In this document: piece after piece, positions 166 through 5,103 of the stretch
How the letters are laid out: the number at the start of each line of letters is the position of its first letter
How positions within the stretch are numbered: position 1 is the first letter of the stretch
UHGV virus genome: UHGV-2204636
Direction: 5' to 3' (one strand)
DNA: 15,617 nt
Source: a virus
Made by a program: the position numbers and the translations under genes
The notes under the pieces: generated by a model
Database searches by the model: none
Told to the model about the DNA's origin: nothing
Seen by the model: only the letters and a program-made list of their open reading frames with translations

Positions 166-408
166 TTAGTAACGCCAGCGGTCATAACGCTGATATTTCG
201 GCACTTTTGGTGCTTTAATCGCCTTAATAACCCACACCACCGCAATCGCCAGTAGTAACCACGGCAGCAACTTAATCATCAATGCCAGCATACCGCCGAG
301 GAACATAATGGCCGTCGCCACAACCAGCGCGGCGATAATGCCCAGCAACGAAACGCCGGTGACCATCAGCATGACAAAAAAGCCAATCACAAAAAGTAGT
401 TCCAGCAT
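166..408 (-). CDS. pspG: Phage shock protein G, small inner-membrane protein (80 aa)
   Basis: Translation from the internal ATG at 408 (MLELLFVIGFFVMLMVTGVSLLGIIAALVV...KVPKYQRYDRWRY) is two hydrophobic helices and matches my recollection of E. coli PspG; GGGAG Shine-Dalgarno 6 nt upstream; the longer ORF to 618 is an upstream in-frame extension with no coding character. Confidence 0.88.
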   Translation of the reverse strand: MLELLFVIGFFVMLMVTGVSLLGIIAALVVATAIMFLGGMLALMIKLLPWLLLAIAVVWVIKAIKAPKVPKYQRYDRWRY

Positions 409-443
409 GATGCACTCCCAAATATGAAATCTCTTGCTGGCAT

Positions 444-459
444 TACAAGAATCATGCCA
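444..459 (-). promoter_or_regulatory. Candidate sigma54 (-24/-12) promoter of pspG: TGGCATG-N4-TTGTA
   Basis: Minus-strand sequence TGGCATGATTCTTGTA about 35-50 nt upstream of the pspG ATG; pspG is known to be PspF/sigma54-dependent. The -12 element is TTGT rather than the consensus TTGC. Confidence 0.45.
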
Positions 460-480
460 AAAATAATCTATTGATTTAAC

Positions 481-511
481 AGCAAAACGCCCCGCGACGG
501 TGCGCAGGGCG
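481..511 (-). terminator. Rho-independent terminator downstream of dusA
   Basis: Minus-strand hairpin CGCCCTGCG-caccgt-CGCGGGGCG (+ coordinates 488-511) followed by TTTTGCT, about 30 nt after the dusA stop codon. Confidence 0.5.
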
Positions 512-541
512 TGGTGAATTTGACTATTTTTTGGTGAAAAG

Positions 542-1579
542 TTAACGCTTATCCGCCACCAGTTTGAGCGCGTGTTCCAGCACATTAATGTCTGCACCCG
601 CTTTATGGGCATTTTCACTTAAATAACGCCGCCACTGCCGCGCGCCAGGAATACCCTGGAACAAGCCCAACATATGCCGGGTAATATGACCGAGATACGT
701 CCCCTGGCTGAGTTCACGCTCAATGTACGGATACATGGCGCGCACTACCGCCACCGGATCGGCATCGATATCCGAGGAACCAAAGATCTCCCGGTCTACC
801 GCCGCCAGAATACCCGGATTCTGATACGCCTCGCGCCCGACCATCACGCCATCCATATGTTGCAGGTGTGCTTTGGCCTCTTCCAGCGACTTGATACCAC
901 CGTTAATCGACATTGTCAGATGCGGAAAGTCACGCTTCAGTTGATACACACGCGGATAATCGAGCGGCGGGATCTCACGGTTTTCTTTCGGACTTAACCC
1001 CGAAAGCCAGGCTTTACGTGCATGGATGATGAACATCTCACACTCGCCTTTGCCGGAAACGGTGTTGATGAAATCGCAGAGAAATTCATAGCTGTCCTGG
1101 TCGTCGATGCCAATACGCGTTTTCACCGTCACCGGAATCGACACCACATCGCGCATCGCTTTCACGCAGTCGGCAACCAGCTGCGCATTACCCATCAGAC
1201 ACGCACCAAACATGCCGTTCTGCACCCGGTCAGACGGGCAGCCGACATTCAGGTTGATCTCATCATATCCACGCGCTTCTGCCAGCTTCGCACACTGTGC
1301 CAGCGCCGCCGGATCGCTACCGCCGAGTTGCAACGCTACCGGATGTTCTTCTTCACTGTACGCCAGGTAATCACCTTTACCGTGAATAATCGCCCCTGTG
1401 GTCACCATTTCGGTATACAGCAACGTATTGCGGGAAAGCAGACGCAAGAAATAGCGGCAATGTCTGTCCGTCCAGTCGAGCATAGGAGCAATGCTAAACC
1501 GAGAATTCCAGTAAACACCAGTTTTTTCAGGCATCACGCTGGTTTGATTAATTTTTTGTGTTTCATGATTATCGTGCAT
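542..1579 (-). CDS. dusA: tRNA-dihydrouridine synthase A; 5' end probably supplied by the integrated element; alternative start at 1534 (MPEKTG...)
   Basis: 345-aa ORF with the Dus TIM-barrel hallmarks ([31 protein letters not shown]); matches E. coli DusA as I recall it. No strong SD before either candidate start. Confidence 0.9.
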
Positions 1580-1611
1580 TTTTGAACATTTCAGGCTATT
1601 TTTCTCGCGTT

Positions 1612-1648
1612 AGGTTCCCGCACAGGTTCCCACGTTTTATGGGAACCC
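1612..1648. promoter_or_regulatory. Three GGTTCCC(A/G) motifs in the dusA-int divergent intergenic region: two direct copies plus an 8-bp inverted repeat GGTTCCCA-N7-TGGGAACC
   Basis: Motif at 1614-1620, 1626-1632 and inverted at 1641-1647, between the divergent dusA and integrase starts; candidate operator or recombinase/RDF binding sites. Confidence 0.3.
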
Positions 1649-1667
1649 GAAATAACGAGGTCGTGTA

Positions 1668-2765
1668 ATGGCGTACTATAACATAGAGAAACGACTAAAA
1701 TCCGATGGCACACCACGCTATCGCTGTAATGTGATTATCAAAGAAAAAGGTGTTATCACTTACAGGGAAAGCAAAACATTCCCTAAACATGCTCATGCCA
1801 AAACATGGGGCACACAGAAAGTGATGGAATTAGATCTATATGGCATTCCATCATCAAATGCAGTTGACGGACTTACAGTCCGTGACTTACTACACAAATA
1901 TTTAAATGACCCAAATGCCGGAGGTAAAGCAGGCCGTACTAAAAGATATGTGCTGGAACTGCTTATGGATAGTGACATCTCCGCGATCAAACTATCTGAA
2001 CTGACAGAAAATGACGTAATTGAACATTGCAGGCTAAGAAACAACGCTGGTGCAGGTCCTGCAACAGTCAGCCACGATGTTAGTTATCTTGGCAGTGTTC
2101 TGGATGCGGCCAAACCTGTATACGGAATTAATTACACATCAAACCCGGCGAAAAGCGCTCGCCCATATCTACTTAAACTTGGTTTGATTGGTAAATCAAA
2201 CCGTCGTAATCGTAGACCAGCATCTGATGAACTGGACATGCTCATTGCAGGCCTTCAACAACGATCTACTCATAAATGCTCAAAAATTCCGTTCGTTGAT
2301 ATCCTCAAATTTTCTGTATGGTCCTGTATGCGAATCGGAGAAGTATGCCGGTTACGATGGGAAGATCTCGACCAGGAACAAAAATCTATACTCGTAAGAG
2401 ACAGGAAAGATCCACGCAAAAAGGAAGGTAACCACATGAAAGTAGCCTTGCTTGGGGAAGCCTGGGATATCGTCCAACGACAGCCCCAAAAATCGGAATT
2501 CATTTTTCCATATAACAGCACTTCTGTTACTGCGGGATTTCAGAGAGTAAGAAGCAAATTAGGTATTAAGGATCTGCGATACCATGATTTGCGTAGAGAA
2601 GGGGCAAGTCGCTTATTTGAGGCTGGTTTTAGTATTGAGGAAGTCGCCCAAGTTACAGGGCATCGTTCATTAAACGTGCTATGGCAGGTATATACCGAAC
2701 TGTATCCGAAATCTTTACATAATCGTTTTGAAGAGCTCCAAAGGAGCAGAAATAAGACCTCTTGA
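1668..2765 (+). CDS. int: Tyrosine recombinase / phage integrase, in the position of a dusA-associated integrase
   Basis: 365-aa ORF with a GAGG SD; C-terminal catalytic signature (...RYHDLRREGASR... GHRSLNVLWQVY) typical of tyrosine integrases; divergent from and adjacent to the 5' end of dusA. Confidence 0.9.
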   Translation: MAYYNIEKRLKSDGTPRYRCNVIIKEKGVITYRESKTFPKHAHAKTWGTQKVMELDLYGIPSSNAVDGLTVRDLLHKYLNDPNAGGKAGRTKRYVLELLMDSDISAIKLSELTENDVIEHCRLRNNAGAGPATVSHDVSYLGSVLDAAKPVYGINYTSNPAKSARPYLLKLGLIGKSNRRNRRPASDELDMLIAGLQQRSTHKCSKIPFVDILKFSVWSCMRIGEVCRLRWEDLDQEQKSILVRDRKDPRKKEGNHMKVALLGEAWDIVQRQPQKSEFIFPYNSTSVTAGFQRVRSKLGIKDLRYHDLRREGASRLFEAGFSIEEVAQVTGHRSLNVLWQVYTELYPKSLHNRFEELQRSRNKTS

Positions 2766-2811
2766 CACTGTTTATCCATACAGTTAAAAATAATGCTGTA
2801 TACAAACACAG
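2762..2811 (+). promoter_or_regulatory. sigma70-type promoter (TTGACA -35, TAAAAA -10 at 17 bp) with a LexA SOS box CTGTATACAAACACAG
   Basis: Perfect -35 hexamer at 2762-2767 overlapping the int stop; CTGT-N8-ACAG with AT-rich spacer at 2796-2811, between the -10 and the RBS (GGAGGG) of the dinI-like gene. Confidence 0.6.
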
Positions 2812-2826
2812 TATGGAGGGACTTTT

Positions 2827-3075
2827 ATGCGTATTGAAATCTGCATAGCCAAAGAAAAAATGACTAAAATGCCAACCGGTGCTGTGGATGCGTTAAAGGA
2901 AGAATTAACCCGACGCATCAGTAAGCGTTATGACGATGTTGAGGTGTTAGTAAAAGCCACCAGCAATGATGGCCTTTCTGTTACACGCACCGCAGATAAG
3001 GATTCTGCAAAAACTTTTGTTCAGGAGACTCTGAAAGATACCTGGGAATCTGCTGACGAGTGGTTTGTTCACTAA
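2827..3075 (+). CDS. DinI-family damage-inducible protein (prophage DinI-like)
   Basis: 82-aa product [11 protein letters not shown]...[16 protein letters not shown] aligns by eye with E. coli DinI (MRIEVTIAK...ETWESADDWFV); strong SD; preceded by a LexA box. Confidence 0.85.
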
Positions 3076-3328
3076 TAAACACGTAAAATCTGTAACGGCT
3101 GGAAATCATTCAATACTCGCACTATCGAAAGTTCACCAGCCAACCGCAGCGCGTTCTTGCATACGACGTGGCTGCGGTCTCAACTCCGTCCCCCACCAAT
3201 CATGATTGGGCAGTACCAGTACAGCACTAGTAAAAACTGGAAATAAGCAGTCTCAGCAAAATACCGGCCAGACGGTGAGAAGACAAAAAAGATACGCAAA
3301 GTAGCCGCGGCCCTTAGTGACATGAAAT

Positions 3329-3349
3329 CCCGCTATACGGGCTTTTTTG
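3329..3349 (+). terminator. Weak terminator-like hairpin (CCCG-ctata-CGGG) followed by CTTTTTTGT
   Basis: Short 4-bp GC stem with a T6 run, inside the 350-bp non-coding gap downstream of the dinI-like gene. Confidence 0.3.
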
Positions 3350-3423
3350 TATCTGCACACGATTGATTATTAGGTCCGTATAGCTAATAGTGGTCTTAAC
3401 CTACATATAGAATCAGAGACTTT

Positions 3424-4119
3424 ATGAAAAAGGAAATACTCAAGGCTCTTTGCCCTACATGCGGTGGGTTACGTAACTGCACTGTGCATGGGAAGCTAAC
3501 CACTAGCTGGGAGGATTCCCAATATCCAGTTTATGGGTACCATTACCATCACCTACTCCAATGCAATGGCTGTGATACTGTCTTCTATCACCACAACGAA
3601 CACTTCAGTGAGCATACTACCCACGAATATCGTGATGGTGAATTTGTAGAAACGCCTATAGATATGATCACTACCTATCCTGCCGCTGAAACATTTCAAG
3701 CTCCGATATGGTTATCCAAGCTTGAATCAGTTGATCGTCAGCTCTTTCAAATATTTAATGAAATGTATTCTTCATATACTTCTGACCATTTCATTCTTTC
3801 GTCCATCGGTTTACGGACGATTTTTGATCGAACTGCTGAACTGTTACAAATTCACCCCGGTTTGCCGCTTGGTGAAAAAGTTGAAAAATTAAAACAAGAT
3901 GGAGTCATAGGCGACACTGAGGCATGCGTTATATCTTCAGTAATTGATGCAGGAAACGCCGCCGCACATCGCAGTTGGAGCCCGAATAAAAGTGAGTTCG
4001 AACAAATGCTAGAAGCTATAGAAAGTTTTGTCCAAAGAACTATCTTGGGCAAAAAATCACTTGAACATATAACCAAACAACTCCCACCTCGGGTTACAAG
4101 ACCTAAAAATAGTGCATAA
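3424..4119 (+). CDS. Hypothetical protein: N-terminal 4-Cys zinc ribbon (CPTC...CNGC) plus C-terminal DUF4145/HEPN-like helical domain; candidate defence or abortive-infection cargo gene
   Basis: 231-aa ORF, visibly AT-richer than the flanking tail genes; CxxC-N32-CxxC plus a His-rich stretch at the N-terminus; C-terminal LGEKVEKLKQDGVI...IDAGNAAAHRS resembles the conserved core of DUF4145 as I recall it (unverified). Confidence 0.75.
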   Translation: MKKEILKALCPTCGGLRNCTVHGKLTTSWEDSQYPVYGYHYHHLLQCNGCDTVFYHHNEHFSEHTTHEYRDGEFVETPIDMITTYPAAETFQAPIWLSKLESVDRQLFQIFNEMYSSYTSDHFILSSIGLRTIFDRTAELLQIHPGLPLGEKVEKLKQDGVIGDTEACVISSVIDAGNAAAHRSWSPNKSEFEQMLEAIESFVQRTILGKKSLEHITKQLPPRVTRPKNSA

Positions 4120-4145
4120 TCCGCGATCATCAATGTGGCGTAAGG

Positions 4146-4702
4146 CTATGGTTTACTTGCTACAGGGAATTTTTTATACACCGTTGAAATACCCAGATCA
4201 TAAATCAGTGCGACTTGCTGCTGATATATTCCCGATTCAATCAACCTGCCAGCCTGCCCCCATTGTTCTACTGTCAGCTTTGGCTTTCGCCCACCGTTCC
4301 TCCCTTCTTGTCGTGCTGCGGCAAAGCCGCCCTAGTACGTTCGACAATAAACTCTCGCTCCATTTCAGCCAGGGCACCCATCACATGAAAGAAAAAGCGC
4401 CCCATTGGTGTGCTGGTATCAATAGCATCCGTCAGGCTGCGAAAATTAACGCCACGTTCGCGCAACTCTTCCACCAGCACGACAAGATGCCGCATACTGC
4501 GCCCCAGTCGGTCCAGTTTCCAGACCACCAGCGTGTCACCTGCCGATAATGTCCTGAGCAGCTTTTTCAGTCCTGGTCTGTCGGACTTTGTACCGCTTAT
4601 CTTGTCTTCAAAAATCAGCTCACATCCTGCACAGTTCAACGCATTACGTTGTAGATCGGTGTTCTGGTCATTTGTTGATACGCGAACATAGCCAATAAGC
4701 AT
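4146..4702 (-). pseudogene. pin: Serine recombinase / DNA invertase of the Pin/Gin/Hin/Cin family, interrupted by a 1-nt frameshift near 4320-4323
   Basis: Frame A (4322-4702) encodes MLIGYVRVSTNDQNTDLQ...GRFFFHVMGALAEMEREFIVERTRAAL (catalytic domain, Ser in VRVSTNDQ). Frame C (4146-4322) encodes AAARQEGRNGGRKPKLTVEQWGQAGRLIESGIYQQQVALIYDLGISTVYKKFPVASKP (HTH domain), matching e14 Pin. Total length 557 nt is not a multiple of 3. Confidence 0.7.
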
Positions 4703-4731
4703 GATAGCTCCTCCTGACAAAAACAGGAACG

Positions 4732-5103
4732 ATGCCATTTGCGCGCTATTTCTGCATTTTCATAAACGTTGGTTTGGGAGAAGCGGCAAAACGGAATGTG
4801 GGAACAGGGAAAAATCAGATACCTGATATGTCAGCTTATTCATCAGGATCTGGCTGGCAAAAATTGCCTGATGGTTCAATTGAACAGTGGGGAAGAATTA
4901 ATTTCCCGTATAACGCCGCGGCGGTATCTACAAATGTGACTTTCACCATTCCTTTTACGCAGGAGCCAGACGTAGTGATTGTATATGACGGCGGTTTTGG
5001 TGGTGGGAATATGTGGGGCGCAACTAACTGGACGAAAACAGGTTTCGTTGCTCATTGTAACTATGGCTTTGAAGGTGGAGCCTTCTACGCGAAAGGGCGT
5101 TAA
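4732..5103 (+). CDS. Silent alternative tail-fibre C-terminal cassette (Sv'-like); the ATG at 4732 is probably fortuitous, the cassette is expressed only after inversion
   Basis: ORF shares the VGLGE junction with the expressed fibre gene at the crossover site, then diverges (AAKRNVGTGKNQ...); no independent N-terminal fibre domain. Confidence 0.55.
   Translation: MPFARYFCIFINVGLGEAAKRNVGTGKNQIPDMSAYSSGSGWQKLPDGSIEQWGRINFPYNAAAVSTNVTFTIPFTQEPDVVIVYDGGFGGGNMWGATNWTKTGFVAHCNYGFEGGAFYAKGR
4757..4782. other. Invertase crossover site (gix/pix-like 26-bp imperfect palindrome), invertase-proximal copy
   Basis: TTTTCATAAACG-TT-GGTTTGGGAGAA; its reverse complement shares TTCTCCCAAACCAA with the site at 6573-6598; resembles hix/gix half-sites. 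Confidence 0.55.

Follow-up and report, generated by a model that had tools for sequence, protein, structure and literature searches.

A non-coding gap downstream of a DinI-like gene in a dusA prophage is probably composed of a lambdoid terminator cassette and the remains of an ssrA attachment site

Does a non-coding gap rich in symmetry elements represent a regulatory region, or can such elements be inherited parts of sequences with another history? The question is raised by a gap of 348 nucleotides (nt) at positions 3076-3423 of a 15,617-nt stretch of the virus genome UHGV-2204636 (hereafter the window), located between a DinI-like gene and a gene with a DUF4145 domain. An initial annotation had described a hairpin, a perfect palindrome and a terminator-like element in the gap and had proposed a regulatory region or a small RNA (sRNA) upstream of an orphan gene, the DUF4145-domain gene. 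Our analysis points to a different origin. The gap is probably the 3' untranslated and terminator region of the DinI-like gene, derived from a lambdoid terminator cassette, followed by the fossil flank of an attachment site in ssrA, the gene of transfer-messenger RNA (tmRNA). This origin is carried by the homologies of both parts, the covariation of the hairpin, the decay of the ssrA-derived part and the genomic context, all of which were observed.

The three symmetry elements are present as described. The arms ACCGCAGC (3143-3150) and GCTGCGGT (3171-3178) of the 8-bp hairpin are perfect complements with 20 nt between them, and in RNAfold the stem at 3143-3178 grows to 13 pairs with one bulge (-18.8 kcal/mol). 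The 14-bp palindrome CCAATCATGATTGG (3196-3209) is perfect and the sole palindrome of at least 14 nt in the window. The weak hairpin consists of four G-C pairs (CCCG/CGGG, 3329-3332 and 3338-3341) followed by T6 at 3343-3348; with four pairs, the stem at 3329-3341 did not pass the plus-strand terminator scan, which applied a five-pair rule. One 14-nt palindrome is expected per 15.6-kb window and at least one occurs in 65% of dinucleotide shuffles; within the 348-nt gap, such a palindrome appears in 1.3% of the gap shuffles and an 8-bp stem with a loop of up to 20 nt in 6.7%. Shuffled sequences fold about as well as the complete gap does (z = -0.9 on the plus strand, -1.1 on the minus strand). 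Taken alone, the elements are therefore only mildly unusual, and their reality rests on conservation among homologues. The statement that the gap holds no open reading frame (ORF) worth calling stands in substance. Short ORFs do exist, one of 46 amino acids (aa) with a TTG start (3065-3205, plus strand) and one of 47 aa with an ATG start (3180-3323, minus strand), but neither is conserved: the former shows no conservation among homologues, and the latter ranges from 8 to 47 aa in differing frames.

BLAST splits the gap cleanly into two pieces. The first is a conserved non-coding module of approximately 100 nt known from lambdoid phages (about 3077-3187, plus strand; covariance-model match 133.8 bits). 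Its homology begins at GTAAAATC (approximately 3083), 8 nt past the stop codon of the DinI-like gene, and stops exactly at the base of the hairpin at 3178. The module is 87-97% identical to lambda 24162-24262, to HK97 20941-21041 and to copies in Shiga toxin (Stx) phages. In lambda, the copy lies in a non-coding stretch of the b region, which we take to be the one between the coding sequences ea31 and ea47. In HK97, the copy adjoins the end of the annotated sib site, has the int-sense orientation and faces the convergent tfa gene, and the copies of Stx phages directly follow dinI. The module occurs in 2927 of 5426 complete Escherichia coli genomes, a single one of which can carry as many as seven copies, and a pattern scan of IMG/VR returned at least 120 contigs; 87 fetched loci hold the true module. 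Flanking sequence was sufficient in 73 loci, and in 35 of these the immediate upstream neighbour is a DinI-like gene in the same orientation. The remaining loci present at least six other upstream contexts, some of them resembling degraded dinI 3' ends. Downstream of the second hairpin, the variants diverge into unrelated families with 24 distinct tails. The module sequence was not mentioned in the literature searched, which also gave nothing relevant on CssrB or on a DinI-like gene combined with a small RNA. At the gathering score, Rfam reported no family anywhere in the window, and for 2900-3600 at E <= 10 it gave chance-level matches plus a partial CssrB hairpin.

The structure of the module was resolved from a covariance-model alignment of 61 distinct copies; RNAalifold on a MAFFT alignment missed the second helix due to a misaligned bulge. 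Hairpin 1 (3097-3141, plus strand; GGCTGG...CCAGCC, with helix 1 pairing 3097-3102 and 3136-3141) has a weak AU-rich interior and a nearly invariant sequence, and none of its helix pairs has changed on both sides. Hairpin 2 (3143-3178, plus strand; tail TCTCAACT) corresponds to the 8-bp hairpin described above and forms the terminator stem of the module. The covariance check across homologous loci recommended in the initial annotation turned out positive: six of the eleven pairs of helix 2 show compensatory changes, and the covariation exceeds that of all 500 of 500 shuffles and of every slid control. This marks hairpin 2 as a real structure maintained in evolution. On the plus strand, at least five T within the 8 nt after helix 2 were found in 39 of the 61 distinct variants (e.g. 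GCGGTTTTTCTTTT and GCGGCTTTTTAC), while the minus strand has merely TT in that position. Because of this T-run, helix 2 resembles, in most lineages, an intrinsic terminator that acts on the dinI/int-sense strand. The tail in the window, TCTCAACT, has three T in 8 nt; the U-tract present in the family has been lost here.

Several observations concern the annotation and arrangement of the module in other loci. A promoter within the module was considered and rejected: TAAAAT at 3084-3089 is a possible -10 element, and it is accompanied by no conserved -35 element and by variable upstream sequences. At times, PGAP/RefSeq places short ORFs or pseudogenes on the minus strand of the module and names them 'capsid protein' or 'nucleocapsid protein' (L128 2490-2576, L129 2487-2636). 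These calls look spurious, since in the GTTAAC variants a TAA stop codon interrupts the frame. In two loci, a pair of module copies about 1.6 kb apart brackets a cargo gene (L107, 1482-1591 and 3084-3193; L064, 12253-12362 and 10651-10760), and in both the dinI-proximal copy is without its first 40 nt or so and has kept the terminator hairpin and the T-run. In L107, the gene between the two copies (1789-2793) is ClpP/SDH-protease-like. Such paired copies fit a role of the module as cassette border or terminator.

The second piece (about 3178-3349, plus strand) derives from ssrA and comprises a tmRNA 3' end, its trailer and a terminator. Positions 3183-3365 of the window match, at approximately 80% identity, a single-copy locus under or next to the annotated ssrA in 4197 of the 5426 E. 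coli genomes, and the flank of the site annotated as 'tmRNA pseudogene / attP' in phage LLS matches the segment at 81%. As a 3' fragment of ssrA continuous with its trailer and terminator, the segment aligns with the ssrA loci of E. coli, Klebsiella, Leclercia and others as well as with the LLS flank. In the window, the ssrA 3' end (3178-3198, plus strand) is degenerate and consists of the T-loop, the 3' half of the T-stem, the 3' strand of the acceptor and CCA. It reads T-CTCAACTCCGTC---CCCCACCA versus G-TTCAACTCCCGCCAGCTCCACCA in the native gene; over the last 20 nt or so of the tmRNA, the aligned sequences are TCTCAACTCCGTC---CCCCACCA in the window and GTTCAACTCCCGCCAGCTCCACCA in the native form. 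A 3-nt deletion and substitutions have altered the tmRNA part, hence an uninterrupted identity block with a bacterial attachment site (attB) is missing. A full-length tmRNA was not detected: ARAGORN reported neither tRNA nor tmRNA in the window.

The palindrome (3196-3209) is composed of the CCA end of the tmRNA and the first 11 nt of the 3' trailer, since tmRNA genes verified by ARAGORN in Klebsiella, Raoultella, Leclercia and several Escherichia end exactly at the palindrome start. It is identical in the aligned native ssrA loci (E. coli E62, other Escherichia species, Klebsiella, Raoultella and Leclercia), in the right attachment junction (attR) of the CP4-57 element of strain K-12 and in phage LLS, with the caveat that two of the collection scans had the palindrome inside their search pattern. 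The tmRNA 3' end has been reported as a cut site of RNase E (PMC4191395), and the palindrome may take part in this processing of the tmRNA end.

The trailer copy (3199-3349, plus strand) ends in a weakened form of the ssrA intrinsic terminator, with its stem at 3329-3341 and T6 at 3343-3348. It is 74-84% identical to the native trailers behind ARAGORN-verified tmRNA genes of four genera; a GTDB pattern scan for a native donor of the window-type trailer yielded 13 loci with 74-82%. In K-12, the 14-nt pseudo-ssrA psaA at the right end of CP4-57 (attR) is followed by the same trailer. The consensus of the native trailers contains 39 pairs with compensatory changes, of which 37-39 are kept in native copies, 38 in LLS and 32 in the window. 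The terminator has a predicted energy of -6.3 kcal/mol in the window versus -15.1 to -18.1 kcal/mol in native copies and -18.6 kcal/mol in LLS, and for this reason the 'weak hairpin plus T6' is read from the sequences as a decayed ssrA terminator. As an observation on the native locus, Escherichia, Klebsiella, Raoultella and Leclercia share a conserved, unannotated sequence of about 150 nt past the mature end of the tmRNA (L006 1207-1360; L130, L132-L135, L137 and L138; L160 2973-3146). It includes the invariant palindrome at the CCA end and folds into several hairpins with compensatory changes. Its conservation suggests a role in the processing or stability of pre-tmRNA.

The two pieces thus bear on what had been claimed for the gap. 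It is indeed not mere spacer, as it has recognisable pieces and the hairpin at 3143-3178 is maintained; the proposal that its elements constitute one regulatory unit for the downstream orphan gene fails, the hairpin on the one hand and the palindrome and T6 on the other having separate origins.

The gene ssrA is a recurrent integration target of islands and prophages (PMC5148205, PMC3146451), and the ssrA piece is most likely the relic of an old attachment site. It is read as a relic because the prophage sits in dusA (542-1579, minus strand), with an integrase adjacent to that gene: a distance of 89 nt separates the tyrosine integrase (1668-2765, plus strand) from the 5' end of dusA. Integrases at the 5' end of dusA constitute a described family (PMC4482086). 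No functional phage attachment site (attP) for ssrA was recognised in the window, whose sole integrase adjoins dusA and whose prophage is integrated there and not at ssrA. The piece is taken for the remains of an ssrA-type attP because the host-derived stretch ends at the terminator T-run, as in LLS, where the order is int, a gene, the tmRNA fragment with attP, the trailer and the terminator. The decay of the window copy agrees with this reading. Alternatively, the ssrA piece may have been derived by capture of a prophage-host junction.

Module and ssrA piece meet at a short motif that they share; it reads GCGG.T.TCAAC where the module ends, and its counterpart in the T-arm of the tmRNA is GCGGGTTCAAC. 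The composite of module, ssrA 3' end, trailer and terminator is not restricted to the window. Several alleles were found within prophages located at dusA, at prfC and near paoD, always followed by variable cargo, and none of the alleles continues the host-derived stretch beyond the T-run of the terminator. The window type recurs in L044, L061 and metagenome contigs. Another dusA prophage (L077) carries an allele followed by an acyltransferase gene, and its match to window positions 166-3348 amounts to 96% overall and to about 76% in the trailer. Further alleles occur in Shigella flexneri and E. coli (L110, L136 and L139), and one allele has hairpin 2 deleted (L072). The allele of L062 retains an intact TTCAACTCCCGCCAGCTCCACCA; its type of junction is present in 284 of the 5426 genomes, and the two examined are located beside prfC and near paoD. 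Behind these two composites the cargo is an AAA ATPase in one and a type II restriction-modification system in the other, with invertase and tail-fibre genes after the cargo in both. As a separate observation, the module runs directly into an undamaged ssrA 3' end in L157 (972-1008 and upstream; GCGGGTTCAACTCCCGCCAGCTCCACCA) and in L062 (901-1040), and these loci could represent live attP sites, or else attR junctions, of phages that bear the module and use ssrA for integration.

A coherent history can be proposed from these data. The lambdoid cassette of approximately 100 nt would mark the 3' border of accessory genes situated between the integrase and the tail-fibre regions. A phage integrating at ssrA would carry the ssrA end, trailer and terminator by its attP, so that integration would rebuild a terminated ssrA. 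In the window, the module would have been joined to the ssrA piece at the shared GCGG.T.TCAAC motif and would therefore have lost its U-tract. The integrase module would have been exchanged, the ssrA-type attP region being retained, and the relic would have decayed to its present state with a broken acceptor and T-arm, a disrupted trailer hairpin and a terminator stem of 4 bp. Transcripts of dinI would now continue beyond hairpin 2, and only a part of them would stop at the weakened terminator of ssrA type.

The source of such transcripts would be the DinI-like gene, for which the gap is the 3' flank (2827-3075, plus strand; 82 aa; Pfam PF06183, E = 1e-19; 'DinI-like family protein' in the RefSeq entry of an identical locus). 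Two LexA boxes of the SOS type CTGT-N8-ACAG, CTGTTTATCCATACAG (2768-2783) and CTGTATACAAACACAG (2796-2811), precede it on the plus strand and are the only matches in the whole window, where 0.26 are expected. They overlap a promoter-like site (TTGACA/-10; 2762-2791) and bracket its -10 element. Because of this overlap, plus-strand transcription into the gap should be SOS-inducible and start at the promoter of the DinI-like gene, and the arrangement suggests a tightly SOS-controlled prophage accessory gene.

The window covers the left end of the prophage. The gene order of the locus is dusA on the minus strand, the integrase, the DinI-like gene, the gap, the DUF4145 gene (3424-4119, plus strand; Pfam PF13643, E = 9e-10), a Pin-type invertase and tail-fibre genes; past the invertase, the minus strand encodes tail-fibre genes together with Mu-like baseplate and tail genes. 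Identical loci are found in E. coli strain 720632 and in about 34 other complete genomes. The Pin/Gin-type invertase (4274-4738, minus strand), which adjoins the tail-fibre genes, carries a frameshift according to the annotation of the locus of strain 720632, where the gap sequence is identical to that of the window. Opposed tail-fibre and assembly ORFs flank the invertase and suggest an invertible host-range segment.

The last 74 nt of the gap (3350-3423, plus strand) belong to neither piece. The homology with L077, L062, L110 and the native loci ends at the T-run, and the remainder is the 5' flank of a DUF4145 cassette with a ribosome-binding site and possibly a weak promoter. The cassette (3351-4140) is present in 34 of the 5426 E. 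coli genomes, always with at least 99% identity. No promoter-like site passed the scan at 3350-3423; by eye, TTGATT-17-AATAGT before the DUF4145 gene is a weak promoter candidate. Some SOS-induced read-through from dinI could reach the DUF4145 gene as well, which is plausible given the missing U-tract of hairpin 2 and the weakness of the ssrA-type terminator. Neither the DUF4145 gene nor two further cargo genes were matched by PADLOC. In a broader perspective, the region that extends from the ssrA-derived terminator to the Pin-type invertase and tail fibres (3350-4740 in the window) is a cargo hotspot. In relatives, its place is taken by an acyltransferase (L077 9122-10168), by an AAA ATPase accompanied by an SRAP pseudogene, or by a GIY-YIG protein together with a type II restriction-modification system (L144 6442-9477 and L145 6303-10161).

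Several points weigh against the terminator-and-relic origin favoured here. Termination and read-through are both deduced from the sequence. The wobble counts leave the strand of helix 2 unsettled, with 37 G-U versus 22 A-C cells for the plus strand, and the sub-threshold match to CssrB (window 3145-3268, minus strand) has a hairpin of similar kind closing a Shigella sRNA on the minus strand at its 3' end; the hairpin may end a minus-strand transcript in some contexts. For the ssrA piece, no near-identical native donor of the window-type trailer was encountered in GTDB and two metagenome scans, the best having 84% identity. Moreover, an intact 23-nt ssrA end kept in 284 genomes, in which neither of the two prophages examined is located at ssrA, is more persistent than expected of a simple dead relic. 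Lastly, the conservation of the first half of the module goes far beyond the needs of termination and hints at another function.

[quoted passage not shown] The invariant hairpin-1 region would then act as seed, and hairpin 2 with its U-tail as Hfq-binding terminator. The layout in the window is indeed the same, LexA boxes being followed by a dinI-like gene and by the module at its 3' end, and the build resembles that of an sRNA, with an AU-rich 5' stretch, an invariant hairpin, a covarying terminator hairpin and a U-tail in 39 of 61 variants. An sRNA would also be compatible with the very wide spread of the module, up to seven copies per genome, and with a first half conserved beyond the needs of a terminator. 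We nevertheless regard it as unlikely. The module has no conserved promoter of its own and also stands behind unrelated DNA in the lambda b region and behind sib in HK97; helix 1 shows no covariation, no Rfam family was matched at threshold, the literature searched does not mention the sequence, and the copy in the window lacks the U-tail needed by Hfq-type sRNAs. Pairing with the E. coli ftsZ start reaches -19.9 kcal/mol, a value equalled or beaten by 48% of shuffles, and for the whole 3' untranslated region 32% of shuffles do as well. The antitoxin-like RNA brought up in the initial annotation found no support, as there is no conserved short ORF that could serve as toxin. In a wider form of the alternative, the module would found an undescribed sRNA family of prophages, released from the 3' ends of SOS-induced dinI-like and accessory genes, with hairpin 1 as seed or protein-binding element, and the ssrA copy behind it might be kept because it recombines with or mimics the host ssrA. 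This, too, is a doubtful proposition; if true, it would add an RNA layer to the interplay of prophage and host in most E. coli strains.

That the palindrome and its neighbours form an operator or promoter region controlling the DUF4145 gene, as had been proposed, appears very unlikely. The elements do lie upstream of that gene and a perfect 14-bp palindrome arises in few shuffles of the gap (1.3%), but 215 nt separate the palindrome from the ATG downstream of it, a terminator lies in between, and the scan placed no promoter-like site near it. It came with the ssrA sequence, being identical at native ssrA loci and in LLS, where the DUF4145 gene is absent, and in relatives it precedes unrelated cargo, namely an acyltransferase, a restriction-modification system or an AAA ATPase.

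Just as improbable is a segment still at work, either as a live secondary attachment site or as a maintained copy that imitates the 3' end of tmRNA and its trailer, perhaps to act as a decoy in pre-tmRNA processing. Composites are present in hundreds of genomes, some copies with an intact TTCAACTCCCGCCAGCTCCACCA (L062, L157) and some with strong terminators, and the trailer alleles differ far more than their flanks (about 76% versus 96% between the window and L077), which suggests repeated exchange with ssrA loci. In the window, however, the tmRNA part has suffered a 3-nt deletion and substitutions, the trailer is missing seven of its 39 pairs and the terminator the greater part of its stem, the element sits in dusA with its sole visible integrase adjoining that gene, and hairpin 2 would be expected to out-compete a T-arm-like fold. 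Finally, the idea that the symmetries arose by chance in spacer DNA retains next to no probability: the ordinary folding energy of the whole gap (z about -1) and the expectation of one 14-nt palindrome per window are in its favour, but it is refuted by the comparative data, in which every element has homologues at a conserved position and hairpin 2 covaries.

With the terminator cassette and the attachment-site relic as the favoured origin, the three eye-catching symmetries are inherited parts of two recycled sequences, and a purpose-built regulatory region need not be assumed. The locus would record a swap of integration modules in a phage family that carries the ssrA end, trailer and terminator and whose members now reside at dusA, prfC and elsewhere. 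It also draws attention to an unannotated, widespread lambdoid cassette that would mark the border of a hotspot for cargo and defence genes. Together, the module and the ssrA landmarks may help to delimit accessory cassettes of prophages and to avoid false calls of sRNAs, operators and genes.

Among known systems, the Rfam family CssrB (RF02799, chromosome-encoded Shigella sRNA B) shares one hairpin with the gap. The last 40 nt or so of the model align well to the reverse complement of hairpin 2, but the score is 18.6 bits versus a gathering score of 76 (E = 0.23), the match is on the opposite strand and the rest of the model is unmatched; at the gathering level, CssrB was also absent from ten related loci. 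The sib region of lambda and HK97 is a neighbour of the module, which in HK97 begins immediately past sib on the int-sense strand. In contrast to sib, the module is a separate sequence, and in lambda it is located approximately 3 kb away in the b region. The Hfq-dependent DinR of Klebsiella pneumoniae (PMC10907235) resembles the gap, as far as the layout is compared, in the combination of a LexA-controlled dinI-type gene with a structured 3' region, which ends in a terminator hairpin in most module homologues. It differs in that the gene in the window is a prophage paralogue of dinI, complementarity to ftsZ does not exceed chance and the module also follows genes other than dinI.

The intrinsic terminators that end 'moron' and other accessory cassettes of phages are a further parallel. 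Like them, the module places a covarying, GC-rich stem immediately behind an accessory gene; most homologues add a U-tract, and copies bracket cargo. Unlike them, hairpin 2 of the window is without a U-tract, and about 60 nt of nearly invariant hairpin-1 region travel along, a feature that termination does not explain. The ssrA piece, in turn, can be compared with the 'tmRNA pseudogene + attP' of phage LLS and with psaA of K-12. All have an ssrA 3' part ending in CCA, the same palindrome, the same trailer of about 150 nt and a homologous terminator, and in LLS the ssrA fragment is likewise downstream of the integrase gene in the same orientation. In contrast to both, the copy in the gap is degenerate, its 5' side is fused to the lambdoid module and not to more ssrA, and its prophage uses dusA and not ssrA, so that the copy does not qualify as a working attP. 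Lambdoid terminator cassettes and fossil attachment-site flanks are both kinds of element already known in principle.

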